This document shows, piece after piece, positions 46,204 to 52,050 of a stretch of DNA of 64,000 nucleotides. The first letter of the stretch is position 1. Every line of letters begins with the position of its first letter. The translations under genes and the position numbers were made by a program. The notes under the pieces were generated by a model. The model ran no database searches. It was given only the letters and a program-made list of their open reading frames with translations, and was not told the DNA's origin. This stretch comes from Chamaesiphon sp. (GTDB lineage Bacteria > Cyanobacteriota > Cyanobacteriia > Cyanobacteriales > Chamaesiphonaceae), in the NCBI GenBank assembly GCA_965246715.1, contig CBDFFH010000022.1:96001-160000 (forward strand). Direction: 5' to 3'.

Positions 46204-47220
46204 CTAGCTTTTCCCGATCGATTGTAAAACTGAATTCGAGTTGGAACTTAATTTTTTCTCCCAGTCTAAAGCCGTCCGCACGATGAGATCGAGGTTATTA
46301 TATCGAGGTTGCCAATTGAGTACTTTGGTAATGCGATCGGCCGCAGAAATTACACAAGCAGGGTCGCCAGCGCGGCGTTCGGCTTCGATAACGGTAAAAT
46401 CTACTCCAGAGATTTCTTTGACTTTTTCGATGACTTCGCGAACGCTGTAGCCCTGTCCGTAGCCACAATTTAAAATCTGACTCGGACTGTCGCTATTGAG
46501 ATAAGCTAATGCGTCAACGTGCGCCCTAGCGAGGTCGTCAACATGGATGTAATCCCTAATCCCCGTCCCATCTGGAGTATCGAAATCAGTCCCAAAGATA
46601 CTTACATCCAGACGGCGACCTAAAGCTGCATCGCAAGCAACTTTGATCAGGTGACTGGCTTTTTTGCCCGATTGTCCCAGCTTACCGCTAACTTCAGCAC
46701 CAGCCACATTAAAGTAGCGCAGAATTACATATCTCAGATTCGAGGCTACGGCATAATCGCGAATCAAGCGCTCGCTCATCAGCTTGGAACTGCCATAAGG
46801 ATTGAGCGGCTGGGGTACGGTTTCTTCGGTAATTGGATTAGTTTCTGGTTGCCCATAGACAGCCGCAGTACTGGAGAAGATTAGTTTATTGACTTCAAAT
46901 TCCTGACAGCAATGCAGTAGGTTGAGCGTATTAGCAGTGTTGTTGCTATAGTAAGCTAGCGGTTGCACGATCGAGTCTGGGACAGAAATACTTGCCGCAA
47001 AGTGCAATACTGCATCAAAATTATGTTCGGCAAAGACGCGCGCTAACTGCGATCGATCGGCTAGATCGCCTAAAACTAGCTTCCCATAAGTTAGATTGCT
47101 AGTAATTCCCGTCGATAAATTGTCATATACAACAATCTCATAACCAGCTTCACCCAATTGTTTAAGCGTGTGCGAACCGATGTAACCAGCACCGCCAGTA
47201 ACTAAGATTTGTTTGTTCAT
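46204..47220 (-). CDS. galE: UDP-glucose 4-epimerase
   Basis: GGAGYIGSH, YGSSK, LRYFNVAGA, RDYIHV. Confidence 0.96.
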   Translation of the reverse strand: MNKQILVTGGAGYIGSHTLKQLGEAGYEIVVYDNLSTGITSNLTYGKLVLGDLADRSQLARVFAEHNFDAVLHFAASISVPDSIVQPLAYYSNNTANTLNLLHCCQEFEVNKLIFSSTAAVYGQPETNPITEETVPQPLNPYGSSKLMSERLIRDYAVASNLRYVILRYFNVAGAEVSGKLGQSGKKASHLIKVACDAALGRRLDVSIFGTDFDTPDGTGIRDYIHVDDLARAHVDALAYLNSDSPSQILNCGYGQGYSVREVIEKVKEISGVDFTVIEAERRAGDPACVISAADRITKVLNWQPRYNNLDLIVRTALDWEKKLSSNSNSVLQSIGKS

Positions 47221-47557
47221 TTGGTTCCCAATCTTGTATGATATTTATAGATTTTGACTAACCAACTTTCTCAAATTCCCGATCGGATGTTACTGCGGTC
47301 GAGGCCAAACTATCAAAGTGTCCTGTATGATTACAGCTGACTTCCTTTAGCAATAATTGTAAGAAAGAATGTGTCAGTTTATTATGCCCATTAATATCAG
47401 TACGATCTAAGTAAATAATTATACTATCGATTTAACCATTCACAAGGGGATGTTGCAGCGATCGAGATCGTTGTCAATTTGCAGTATTTAGTTACTAATT
47501 TTACTAGCGATGGACACGCTCAAACCCAATTTCGCAGCGAGTGCGTGTCATAGTCGC

Positions 47558-48010
47558 TTATTTCCAGCGTTTAGCTAACAGTTGTTCTTCTAGCGCAGCG
47601 ATCCGATTATAAGCAGCAGTCAATTGTGCGGTCAATCTTTGGATTTGGATCTGTGGCGATAAATCTTGCCGCTCGATCTGATGGTGCCCGATCTCCATCC
47701 CGCTGCTATCGATGAGAACATCTTGTTGGGAGACAATCCACTCAGATGTATCCTGACGATAGCTCGAACCACCAGGAAGATCGGCATATCCACTATTGCG
47801 ATACTTGCTGCCAGCTTGCCGCAGGCGTTGAATATCATCACGATCGAGCAATCGAGAGGGAGCCAAGCCTCCATTTTGATGCATGGCTCCCTCTCGATTG
47901 CTCGGTTGAGGTTCTAGCTGCGAGAGATGGTCGTGTAAGCGATCGATTACTTGATAAATCCGATCGACTTTTTGGGTCAGGGTTGTAATCTGTTGTTGGA
48001 TTGATTCCAT
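47558..48010 (-). CDS. conserved cyanobacterial coiled-coil hypothetical protein
   Basis: C-terminal QIQRLTAQLTAAYNRIAALEEQLL. Confidence 0.75.
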   Translation of the reverse strand: MESIQQQITTLTQKVDRIYQVIDRLHDHLSQLEPQPSNREGAMHQNGGLAPSRLLDRDDIQRLRQAGSKYRNSGYADLPGGSSYRQDTSEWIVSQQDVLIDSSGMEIGHHQIERQDLSPQIQIQRLTAQLTAAYNRIAALEEQLLAKRWK

Positions 48011-48281
48011 CTTTTTCCCTAAAATAACTTATCCCGATCGTAAGGAATAGATCGATATTTGTTGATATATTGCTGAATTATTTAACTTTTGCAAATAATT
48101 GTGATGTTAATTATTAATTAATTATGGAGAAATTAGCCACTCCCAGCTCGTAGTCATTACAGAATTTAATTGCGATCTTCGTTGATGAGATGTTGCTCGA
48201 TCGAGAAATGACTCAGAGGGAGATAGCGCTTACTTCTGCCGACATTTTTTTTATACCTGGACTCAGCAACGCCAATTATGA

Positions 48282-48917
48282 CTAAGGTGCCAATCGATCG
48301 ATCTGCCATTCCCCAGCAACTAATTGATAGCGTAATCTGTCGTGGAGCCGACTGGGACGACCTTGCCAAAACTCGATTTTCTGCGGAATGACGCGCACGC
48401 CGCCCCAATGTGAGGGTTTGGGAATTTCTCGATCGTGATATTCGGTTGCTAATGCTTGGAGCTTGGTTTCTAGCACGGAGCGATCGGGAATAATCGAACT
48501 TTGCTCGGAAGCCCACGCTCCCAGTTGACTGCTGGCTGGGCGGCTGTGAAAGTATTCTGTGGCCTCTGATTCGGCGACTAGCTCGATTTTGCCCTCGATC
48601 CGCACTTGACGTTCTAAATCGCCCCACAGAAACACCAGCGCGGCATGGGGACAAGCTTGGAGTTCGAGACCTTTTTGGCTGTTGTAGTTGGTATAAAAGA
48701 CAAATCCACGCGCGTCAAATTGCTTCAGCAAAACAATCCGCGCTGAGGGTTTGCCCTCAGCTGTCACGGTTGCGACTGTCATCGCATTGGGTTCTAATAA
48801 ATTGGCCGCCACAGCTTGCTCGAACCATAAACTAAATTGCTCGATCGGATTGGCGACAACATCTGTCTCTAGTAGTCCAGCTTGAGTATAATTTTTGCGG
48901 AGGTCAGAGACTTTCAT
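48282..48917 (-). CDS. pdxH: pyridoxamine 5'-phosphate oxidase
   Basis: ARIVLLK, FYTNYNSQKG, EFWQGRPSRLHDR; start taken at MKVSDLRK. Confidence 0.96.
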   Translation of the reverse strand: MKVSDLRKNYTQAGLLETDVVANPIEQFSLWFEQAVAANLLEPNAMTVATVTAEGKPSARIVLLKQFDARGFVFYTNYNSQKGLELQACPHAALVFLWGDLERQVRIEGKIELVAESEATEYFHSRPASSQLGAWASEQSSIIPDRSVLETKLQALATEYHDREIPKPSHWGGVRVIPQKIEFWQGRPSRLHDRLRYQLVAGEWQIDRLAP

Positions 48918-49015
48918 TGAGGGAATAGGAGTTAGGGGTTGGCAATGAAGAAGGAGAGATCCTCCATTTACCATAACTAATTAACGGCGTTGCTGAATTA
49001 TGGTATGAACTGCCC

Positions 49016-49405
49016 CTTGTATCCCAAAGGAAGGTCAAAGAGTAAAATCTGCGATCGCTTGTCAACAGCAAAAGGCAAAGGGAAATTCGGATTGCCCCTA
49101 GGGACACTAAGCCCGTTAGTGTAGATCGAATCACCTGAGTCTAGACAGTGGTACCAGTCAAAACTGGACAGTATCAGCGGTCGCCAGCTCGTCGATCGGG
49201 TAAACCTGCATTTAATAAGGATAGTTTATCGCCACTAATTGCGGTTGAAGTGGTTCTTTAGCACACAGAAACTAGAGATGAGTAGTTCAAACCAAGAGTT
49301 AGATATACTCGGCATCGACATTCGCAAAGCCAAATTTGCGACCAAAATCGCGCTAAGGTCTTCTCAGCGTGCGTTTTGCTCAAGACGACGTAGCTTTGCT
49401 CTCCA
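49016..49405 (+). mobile_element. IS110-family left end plus truncated transposase
   Basis: CT core + TGTAT junction; ATG at 49278 gives MSSSNQELDILGIDIRKAKF|DVALL after removing 49338-49386. Confidence 0.8.
49050..49240 (+). ncRNA. putative IS110 bridge RNA
   Basis: Guide-like ATTGCCCCT (49091-49099) and GTGTAG (49119-49124); donor guide ACAGTATC (49168-49175) and AATAAG (49214-49219) within an AAACTG/TAGTTT stem; ends approximate. Confidence 0.7.
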
Positions 49406-49445
49406 GATACTCCCAGCACGTCCAAATCTCGAAACTCCTAAACCA

Positions 49446-50267
49446 ATGCCTACAAACCCAATTGTCACCGCTGCATGGCTTCACGATCGATTATGCGATC
49501 CTACCGTTGCACTAGCAATCATAGATTGTCGATTTGCACTGGCAGATCCGGATCTCGGGCGACAGCAGTATGCAGCCGCCCACATTCCCGGCGCACACTA
49601 CATGGACTTAAATCGCGATCTGTCTAGTCCCGTCCGCGAACATGGCGGTAGACACCCATTGCCTGACGCTCGGGTCTTCGGGGACAAATTAGCCGCGATC
49701 GGGATTAACGATCGAACATTAGTTATCGCTTACGATGATTCGCGCTTTGCCTTTGCCGCACGCTTGTGGTGGTTGTTGCGTTATTACGGACACGATCGCG
49801 TGGCGGTATTAGATGGTGGTTATGACAATTGGGCAAAAGCGGGTTATTCGGTGACTGCGGAGCTGCCAGCACCAGCCGAACGCGGCAATTTTCAGCCCCA
49901 ACCTCAGCCAGCGCGAATCGTTGATATCGCCGCAGTCAAATCGCTCCTGCATTCATCAGCGCATGTGCTGGTAGACTCCCGGGAACCCGATCGCTATTTA
50001 GGTAACACCGAACCGATCGATCCCCGTGCCGGACATATCCCCAGCGCGGTCAATTATCCCTGGCAAGCTGTTTCTACACCAGATGGATTCGTGTTACCTG
50101 TCGATCGACACCGCGAGCGGTGGGCGACAATTTCGCCAGATGTGGAACCGATCGTCTATTGCGGTTCGGGCGTGACAGCTTGTGTCAATCTCTTATCGCT
50201 AGAACTTGCTGGCATCACGCGATCGAAGCTCTATCCTGGGAGTTGGAGTGACTGGTGTTCTTATTAG
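49446..50267 (+). CDS. sulfurtransferase (SseA / tandem rhodanese)
   Basis: HIPGA, GRHPLP, YCGSGVTAC, YPGSWSDW. Confidence 0.93.
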   Translation: MPTNPIVTAAWLHDRLCDPTVALAIIDCRFALADPDLGRQQYAAAHIPGAHYMDLNRDLSSPVREHGGRHPLPDARVFGDKLAAIGINDRTLVIAYDDSRFAFAARLWWLLRYYGHDRVAVLDGGYDNWAKAGYSVTAELPAPAERGNFQPQPQPARIVDIAAVKSLLHSSAHVLVDSREPDRYLGNTEPIDPRAGHIPSAVNYPWQAVSTPDGFVLPVDRHRERWATISPDVEPIVYCGSGVTACVNLLSLELAGITRSKLYPGSWSDWCSY

Positions 50268-50270
50268 AGC

Positions 50271-50451
50271 GCCCAAGTTGCTACCTATAAGCAAAGCGGT
50301 TAGAAACCGCTCCTCGGAATGCAAAGTCCGGTTGTTGCCGCTCGCGGCAAAAGCCTGCCTACGCGGACTAACTATCTAGTCCGCGTAGGCGGACTTTGCA
50401 GCATTAGCCGCGACTTCAGTCGCAGGCATTATATAAGGTAGCAACTTAGGT
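50271..50451. mobile_element. MITE family C
   Basis: CCCAAGTTGCTACC / GGTAGCAACTTAGGT; similar to 58376-58554 in inverted orientation. Confidence 0.8.
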
Positions 50452-50492
50452 TACATATACACTAATCGATCGGATTTAGCGTGCAGCTAAAA

Positions 50493-51341
50493 TCACACCA
50501 TTTTCTTGAGGAACGTTTTCAGATTACTGAGAAATGTAGTAGAAACAGGGCGCTGTTTAGAGTCGAGATCGATGGATGGCAAGATTAGTGCCGAGTCGCT
50601 CGGTTGGAGTGGCTGAGGCGGAATTTCACGGATCGTCCCAAAAACACTCAATCGAAAGCTGATTTGACGAACGATCTCGATCGATAGCGCCATTTTTAAT
50701 GCCAATTTAACTAATGGTGTTTTGCCATCAGCTAACTTCCATAACTCTAACTCATGGCGATTGAGTTCAAAATTAGGTTGCTGCGAATTGCATCGTTGAA
50801 TTGCATAATGTGGGTCGGGCAACTTGGCACTCAATCCGCTCCAATCCTTCAGTAATCTAAGGGACAATAATCCTAAATCCTGGGCGGAGGCGCTGATGCC
50901 AGTCAGCTCGGAATTAATTGGCGAGCGACCGGGATCGAACTGAAATCGGCTATTCTTGAGTTCAAATAGTCGATGGATTGGTGAGATTGTTTGAGAATTA
51001 AACAAAAACTTAAGCTCTGCGGCATCTAGCAATCCTTGCGACTTCAAATAAATACCTAGTGGTTGCGGTAAACGATCGAGGATGGTTGTCACTGGATAAA
51101 TTTCAGCTTGGGACATTAATTTCCGCCGCTCGATCTTCGTCAATAGTTCGCTACCGTCTATTCCAGAAGTAACAGCCACAATCCGACCGCTTTCAAACCA
51201 TAAATAATCGTGGTTATTACTGGGAACTGTAGCTAAATTTCGATCGGGAGAAAGTGTGAGTAATCCAGTCCGATTGCCTTCATAAATAAAGCTAAAAATT
51301 TCTGCCAAGGAATATTCTGATAAATACCCAGAAAATTTCAT
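50493..51341 (-). CDS. stand-alone DUF4388/PATAN-domain protein
   Basis: GYLSEYSLAEIF..RTGLL..WFESGRIVA; paralog of 52051-52923. Confidence 0.85.
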   Translation of the reverse strand: MKFSGYLSEYSLAEIFSFIYEGNRTGLLTLSPDRNLATVPSNNHDYLWFESGRIVAVTSGIDGSELLTKIERRKLMSQAEIYPVTTILDRLPQPLGIYLKSQGLLDAAELKFLFNSQTISPIHRLFELKNSRFQFDPGRSPINSELTGISASAQDLGLLSLRLLKDWSGLSAKLPDPHYAIQRCNSQQPNFELNRHELELWKLADGKTPLVKLALKMALSIEIVRQISFRLSVFGTIREIPPQPLQPSDSALILPSIDLDSKQRPVSTTFLSNLKTFLKKMV

Positions 51342-51374
51342 ACTGCTAACTGTAAGATTCTTAGATATTAATAA

Positions 51375-51935
51375 CTAACAAATAATTGCTACTTCTTCAA
51401 CATTAGTATTTGCCATATAATGCTCTACGAGCGCGACCAATGCATCGATGACAGATTCTTCTTCATCGGCATTTACCGACACGATCGGTGGACGCTGAGC
51501 GCTTTCTTGATAGCCTAATGCTAAGGCGATATCTTCATTTCCCCAAGCTCCTTCACAATCACCGTGAGTAATACCGATAATCATCGGAACGTGCGAGCGC
51601 TGATTCATGAAATTCATAATTCGACGTGCGTGATGAAATTCGCCCGGTCGATGTGCTGCAATTAGTAACACATAAGCATGAGCGCGCTCGATCAAAATTT
51701 CCCACATAAAATCGAACCGAATCTGACCGGGAGTGCCATAGATATGTAATGCCATATCTTCGCCAAATTGGAGCGTCCCAAAATCCATCGATACAGTAGT
51801 ATTTTGCTTCATACCTGCCACCTCATCAGTGGCTTTGCGATCGGTATCGACAACTTCAATCTCACTGGCAGAGCGAATAAATGTACTTTTTCCCGCCCCT
51901 ACCGTTCCCGTAACCACTAAACGCATAATTTCCAT
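51375..51935 (-). CDS. MglA/CvnD-type small GTPase
   Basis: GTVGAGKST, TTVSMDFG, YGTPGQ.RF.FMW, THGD. Confidence 0.9.
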   Translation of the reverse strand: MEIMRLVVTGTVGAGKSTFIRSASEIEVVDTDRKATDEVAGMKQNTTVSMDFGTLQFGEDMALHIYGTPGQIRFDFMWEILIERAHAYVLLIAAHRPGEFHHARRIMNFMNQRSHVPMIIGITHGDCEGAWGNEDIALALGYQESAQRPPIVSVNADEEESVIDALVALVEHYMANTNVEEVAIIC

Positions 51936-52050
51936 ATTTTATCGATCCTATTGTGCGGAAAATCAATGAAATTGTTGAGACAGAGATAGAGCTGGTGGTT
52001 ACAAACTTATCTTGCAAATTGGCAGAATAATTAATACTATGTATAGCAAT

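Follow-up and report, generated by a model that had tools for sequence, protein, structure and literature searches.

The analyzed window, a stretch of 64,000 nucleotides from a Chamaesiphon sp. genome (herein G000), contains a left-end remnant of an IS110 element at positions 49016-49401, located between pdxH and a rhodanese gene (Table 1). The remnant comprises the CT core, a non-coding left end of 260 bases, and 25 codons of the recombinase gene, and it lies just upstream of the rhodanese gene on the same strand. All the motifs of the original prediction were found in place: the flank ACTGCCC, the core CT, the arm TGTAT, and the start codon ATG (49278), as well as the guide motifs ATTGCCCCT, GTGTAG (49119-49124), GGACAGTATCA (49166-49176), and ATTTAATAAGG (49210-49220). 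The recombinase is cut at about 25 codons, as had been proposed, but the peptide ILGIDIRKAKF-DVALL is not contiguous: a hairpin repeat of 49 bp interrupts it. Of the catalytic residues, this fragment retains the first Asp alone.

Table 1. Features of the remnant locus in the window, and left-end stubs in other genomes
Feature	Position	Strand	Remarks
pdxH (pyridoxamine 5'-phosphate oxidase)	48282-48917	-	PF01243, PF10590; left neighbor, transcribed away from the remnant
Dispersed palindromic repeat, left half (former target)	48986-49015	+	Left target ACTGCCC at 49009-49015; ATTGCCC in sister genome G011
CT core, left boundary of the element	49016-49017	+	Homology begins here in the 7 left ends of the genome
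Left end of 260 bp with the bridge-RNA gene	49018-49277	+	Right donor arm TGTAT at 49018-49022; -10-like hexamer at 49020-49025; own covariance model 136 bits
Target-binding loop	49073-49141	+	Left target guide ATTGCCCCT at 49091-49099; inner hairpin 49101-49114; right target guide GTAG at 49121-49124; handshake AT at 49125-49126
Donor-binding loop	49146-49237	+	Left donor guide ACAGTATC at 49168-49175, intact; right donor guide at 49210-49219, damaged
DEDD recombinase, first 20 codons	49278-49337	+	17 of 20 identical to an intact copy
49-bp hairpin repeat of a dispersed family	49338-49386	+	In the reading frame, causing a frameshift; also in the twin remnant on C41
Recombinase codons 21-25 (DVALL)	49387-49401	+	Element homology stops at 49401
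Rhodanese-like sulfurtransferase	49446-50267	+	PF00581; right neighbor
Left-end stub L097	G015:C94:4699-4790		
Left-end stub L094	G005:C4:7077-7171		
Left-end stub L104	G011:C3:2615872-2615965		
Left-end stub L125	G039:C55:32727-32780		
Left-end stubs L129-L131	E. coli, 3' of znuB		

Downstream of the remnant, the last 30 kb of the contig show no same-strand right end, and over this range a composite element closed by a remote right end was rejected as well. The remnant's own right flank is lost, and no empty pre-insertion site was found, the 16 other pdxH loci in the genus having different neighbors. With the frameshift at codon 21, the stop of homology at 49401, and no right end downstream on the contig, the remnant is not a functional element. 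Elsewhere in the window, a long near-perfect inverted repeat is located within a short ORF (47836-47913), where spurious matches to Rfam microRNAs fall below the threshold.

In total, 11 matches to PF01548 were found in the genome. Four full-length relatives of the remnant, which the original prediction had proposed to look for, were found among the IS110 elements of the same genome; in their left ends they share about 84% of bases with the remnant, an identity that holds over about 330 bp. These elements are 1265 bp long (one of them carries a 220-bp insert) and encode 330-aa proteins with the PF01548 and PF02371 domains. Scanning for element ends yielded 7 left and 5 right ends of the remnant's type, which come from the four full-length elements, a miniature on C54 with an internal deletion, the 49016-49401 remnant, and a twin remnant on C41. 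The protein of an intact sibling is 44% identical to the IS621 recombinase of Escherichia coli and retains all five catalytic residues (D14, E65, D107, D110, and S246, aligned with those of IS621). In the PDB, it matches both ISCro4 and IS621; the best match among solved structures is the ISCro4 recombinase (PDB 9t56, E 5.5e-76), a comparison of proteins only. The proposed IS621-type IS110 left end with a CT core is thus confirmed by homology to the four full-length relatives: the membership is carried by PF01548, PF02371, and the five catalytic residues in the intact siblings, and the remnant itself contributes 17 of 20 codons plus DVALL.

From the ends of the siblings, the donor reads ACAGTAT-CT-TGTAT, which is identical to that of an annotated IS621 record and to the prediction; like IS621, the siblings end in ACAGTAT-CT. 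Their right ends extend less than 20 bp past the stop codon, and the left ends of 253-260 bp hold the guides. The joined ends, read by eye, contain TTGACT and TATCCT separated by 17 bp. The IS1111 group, characterized in PMC11208160 by a short left end, a long RNA-carrying right end, and long sub-terminal inverted repeats, was rejected because of the position of the guides in the left end and the short right end of the siblings. A second family of elements, herein referred to as family B (323 aa), has the same donor as the remnant's family and a different guide.

The target of the remnant's family is 11 nt long, ATTGCCC-CT-AC, and belongs to an abundant palindromic repeat. The sequence ATTGCCCCTAC has 76 exact copies in the genome against about 2.6 expected, and the 11-nt target is mostly found within a 28-bp palindrome (36 perfect copies). 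The 13-nt target ATTGCCCCTACAC, originally predicted, was rejected, having no copies in the genome. Among the complete elements with the same GTGTAG stretch as the remnant, the right flank begins with AC in 7 of 7 and with ACAC in none. The right target guide has 4 nt (GTAG), as does that of IS621 (PMC11208160), so the target reads ATTGCCC-CT-AC. Empty repeats of the variant flanking the remnant are present at C38:16443 and C46:38333. No Y1/RAYT-type transposase flanked by the exact palindrome was found at the 6 loci checked, so its likeness to a GTAG-type REP is a matter of resemblance.

The left target guide of the remnant matches its own flank at 8 of 9 positions, which agrees with the original prediction. 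In the sister genome G011, the flank is a perfect ATTGCCC; therefore, the single mismatch is a later change. The correspondence between guides and targets was analyzed in 26 loci, of which two without the anchor motif and one with a duplicate RNA region were dropped and 23 were aligned. In the 17 distinct guides of these relatives, 105 of the 119 non-core positions match the element's own left flank, a count that includes one misfit (L063, 1/7) and non-independent kin, though the guides differ widely. In 100,000 shuffles, the mean number of matches was 47.9 (sd 6.0) and the maximum was 77. Additionally, of the 20 elements having a right end, 19 carry to the right of the core the two bases that their right guide predicts, the only miss being a doubtful end call, and this guide shifts from GTAG to TCAG where the flank shifts from AC to GA. 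Judging from this guide-target covariation across relatives, the guide is real. Metagenome contigs, scanned for the pattern of the guide stretch, gave no hits.

The predicted two-loop bridge RNA, in the terms of PMC11208158, is also supported, with the loops and guides of the remnant in the IS621 order. In an alignment of 15 close sequences, this structure is 95.2% paired, and 9 of its 29 pairs are changed on both sides; none of 500 shuffles reached this pairing, and slid controls gave 29-50%. The structure was named by hand from the tested alignment, since unconstrained RNAalifold mispaired the guides in it, so the support from pairing and covariation is inflated. Folding of single sequences, suggested originally as a check, gave less: the 260-nt left end alone is no stabler than shuffles (z 0.35), and the separately folded loops of the remnant have z-scores of -1.30 and -1.35 vs. 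-2.71 and -2.11 in an intact copy. The suggested covariance-model search likewise had a mixed outcome, as Rfam gave five weak matches in 47000-52000 and none over the remnant, while the model built here from 23 cyanobacterial left ends scores the remnant at 136 bits. The same model detects the left end of IS621, which is outside the training set (33.2 bits, E 1.6e-7).

These failures of folding and of Rfam, together with the lack of a Pfam match for the 20-codon peptide alone, are what could be expected if the motifs were chance matches or a part of the palindromic repeat with no IS110 end at all. This reading is refuted by the identity to full-length IS110 elements and by the guide-flank covariation, and it also conflicts with the covariation of stems and with the anatomy common with IS621; its probability is negligible.

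Similarity to IS621 (Durrant 2024, PMC11208160; Hiraizumi 2024, PMC11208158) extends to most elements of the anatomy. The CT core, the donor, the bridge RNA's placement in a long left end, the 9-nt left target guide, and the right target guide of 4 nt, GTAG, with AT after it are the same, as are the left donor guide ACAGTATC, the bulged right donor guide, and the use of a palindromic repeat as a target. The left target, in contrast, is ATCAGGC in IS621 and ATTGCCC here, in a cyanobacterial repeat, and the cyanobacterial elements have a longer left end and a shorter right end. Unlike IS621, the remnant lacks the recombinase past codon 25 and the right end, and its right donor guide is damaged. 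Another related system is ISPpu9 of Pseudomonas putida, an IS110 element that, according to PMC12288879, is likewise inserted into palindromic repeats and has truncated derivatives in the same genome. The non-autonomous ssr9 units of ISPpu9 are described there as keeping both ends and forming circles, whereas the remnant consists of a single end; its genome does have a miniature with two ends, but at a separate locus on C54.

Taken as a whole, the locus is very probably what is left of an IS621-type IS110 element inserted into the repeat spelled by its guide: a left end that has lost the recombinase gene as well as the right end and that is likely in decay, with no function. The mechanism of the ancestor is reconstructed by homology with IS621. 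The intact element would have formed a circle whose joined ends created a promoter, with the TTGACT and TATCCT boxes seen in the intact copies. Its bridge RNA would have paired with ATTGCCC-CT-AC through the target loop and with ACAGTAT-CT-TGTAT through the donor loop, and the recombinase would have put the circle into the CT of the palindromic repeat upstream of pdxH. Later, the recombinase gene was presumably broken by the 49-bp hairpin at codon 21, after which the rest of the element would have been lost, together with the right half of the repeat, by deletion or rearrangement. The 8/9 match of guide and flank would be the footprint of the original insertion, 9/9 before the change in the flank. 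Without the right end, the remnant can neither excise nor rebuild its promoter.

The original prediction also held that the RNA region is largely intact and could act in trans, and this part of it is not supported. The right donor guide (ATTTAATAAG, 49210-49219) carries a C-to-T change at 49216 and an extra A at 49214; in its pairing with the donor, a wobble replaces a C-G pair and one more base is bulged. The C in question is kept in 12 of 12 intact elements. Additionally, an inner-stem pair of the donor loop is broken at 49178. The left donor guide still pairs with the donor at 8 of 8 positions, and all four target-guide and left-donor-guide segments survive, together with most stems. G011 has the same remnant in the same place with different lesions: the target guide is changed and the ATG is gone, but the right donor guide is intact. 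Contigs of sequencing runs show the G011-type letters (T in the flank at 49010, loss of the start codon, and no extra base near 49214).

Between the two genomes, 11 of the 181 RNA-core bases differ (6.1%), as do 15 of the 260 across the left end and 5 of the 124 in the dead gene fragment (4.0%). Two neighboring genes differ at 7.1% and 6.2% of third codon positions and at 1.9% and 2.8% of first and second positions. A third neighboring gene has 16.7% at third positions (16.7% and 6.2%), possibly an alignment-edge effect; because of this gene and the few changes, the neutral rate is imprecise. Of the 13 columns variable among three remnants, 7 fall on conserved columns, with about 6 expected (47% of columns are conserved). 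The remnant departs from conserved columns at 4 places, the range in intact elements being 0-17, and it alone among the three remnants has kept the conserved G at 49166. On these comparisons, the RNA region appears not to be kept, its divergence being at about the neutral rate of third codon positions.

An alternative explanation is that the remnant has been retained as a stand-alone bridge-RNA gene, serving or interfering with the recombinases of intact copies in trans. Its presence at the same place in both genomes, and that of intact copies with an identical donor in the same genome, fit such a role. The bridge RNA of IS621 works in trans in the assays described in PMC11208160, and read-through can supply it without the junction promoter (PMC13626964). 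However, without the right end there is no -35 box, the junction promoter cannot form, and no sigma-70-like site was found in 48850-49500. The guide lesions differ between the two genomes, the divergence is near-neutral, and IS621 tolerates right-donor-guide mismatches poorly (PMC11208160). The guides moreover duplicate those of the intact copies, so that acting in trans they would bring no new specificity. A further point cited for this explanation comes from genome G039, in which the site occupied by one element is the one that another resident element's guide spells, but the left and right flanks there are mismatched and the locus may be a chimera. Retention as a stand-alone RNA gene is accordingly considered unlikely.

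It is very unlikely that the remnant was kept for the rhodanese gene, as a 5' leader or an N-terminal extension. In its favor, the ATG at 49278 happens to open a frame that runs into the rhodanese start without a stop, and the order pdxH-remnant-rhodanese was found only in G000 and G011 among 17 pdxH loci; yet G011 has lost this ATG, the divergence of the fragment is that of dead sequence, and the extension would be mostly translated hairpin repeat. Gene callers may add a false 56-residue N-terminal extension to the rhodanese gene (49278-50267).

Several other loci, mostly in this genome, stood out. The twin remnant (G000:C41:88297-88692) is 95% identical to the remnant, has the same 49-bp insert, and breaks off a few bases further on; its counterpart in the sister genome (L034, G011:C3:1242969) has just about 55 bp left. 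The mosaic pattern of changes shared among the remnant, the twin, and the sister copy suggests gene conversion. The miniature on C54 (G000:C54:20138-20247), about 110 bp long, has both ends and both cores without a bridge RNA, is also present in G011 (L046), and could be movable in trans. A different, 220-bp miniature element with a 9-bp duplication is inserted exactly between the target and donor loops of an otherwise intact copy (G000:C43:136217-136427). In the intact copy at G000:C22:94054-95318, with its recombinase gene at 94309-95298, the left and right flanks come from different repeat variants, which suggests recombination between copies or an assembly join. Head-to-head IS110 pairs in adjacent repeats were also found, one combining families A and B (G000:C15:204617-207372) and others with both members of the same family (L053-L056). 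The hairpin repeats (about 49 bp, with a variable stem) occur at many loci within other repeats and, at 49338-49386, inside a gene; a literature search gave no identification for this family.

Truncated left ends of another kind were found in relatives. A pattern search in 39 genomes of the family gave 22 hits, 3 of them chance matches and 19 left ends. Three of the 19 left ends (in G015, G005, and G011) are stubs: they are about 80 bp long and break off exactly at the CT in the DNA copy of the guide. With a fourth stub in G039 and a locus in E. coli, there are five stubs of 70-85 bp, each terminating at the guide's CT. AC comes next in three stubs, like the right arm of the target, and TG in the other two; the G015 stub is directly followed by the right arm of the palindrome itself. 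Of 60 evenly spread E. coli rows, 14 stop at the guide's CT, and the three rows inspected represent one identical 72-bp stub beside znuB, for which an empty allele exists (L136). No further stubs were found among 7 hits in 401 genomes, where only AC-type stubs could match, or among 15 family-B hits in 401 genomes. No description of the stub pattern or of solo bridge RNAs was found in the openly accessible literature.

A tentative explanation, rather doubtful at present, is that the left target guide, being present in the element's own DNA as target plus core, is a built-in half-site of IS621-type elements and that a recombinase crossover there would delete the element, leaving a stub of 70-85 bp. 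Recombination of IS621 with partly matched sites has been reported (bioRxiv 2026.08.31.748434). At the guide position, the E. coli stub has the sequence of the flanking repeat and not that of the nearest IS621 variant seen, so microhomology recombination with the empty allele competes seriously with recombinase-driven mis-excision. Under the tentative explanation, this guide sequence might be a trace of guides being rewritten from targets.

The case in G039 involves L063 (C20), located in a site that is spelled at 9 of 9 positions by the guide of the co-resident L082 (C93) and not by its own. The right flank of L063 does not continue the repeat spelled by L082, and a rearrangement or an assembly chimera is as likely here as guidance in trans.

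The 49016-49401 remnant is an ordinary relic of a known system, likely decaying unused, and in itself matters little. It marks, though, a cyanobacterial clade of IS621-type elements that share the donor of IS621 and have at least 17 natural target guides, a ready source of orthologues for work on bridge recombinases; this clade may already be included among the orthologues tabulated in PMC11208160. If the stub explanation is true, self-recognition at the DNA copy of the guide would be a built-in route of self-destruction for these elements and a constraint on designs in which the bridge-RNA gene is placed in cis, and it would possibly offer a handle on how natural guides switch target.
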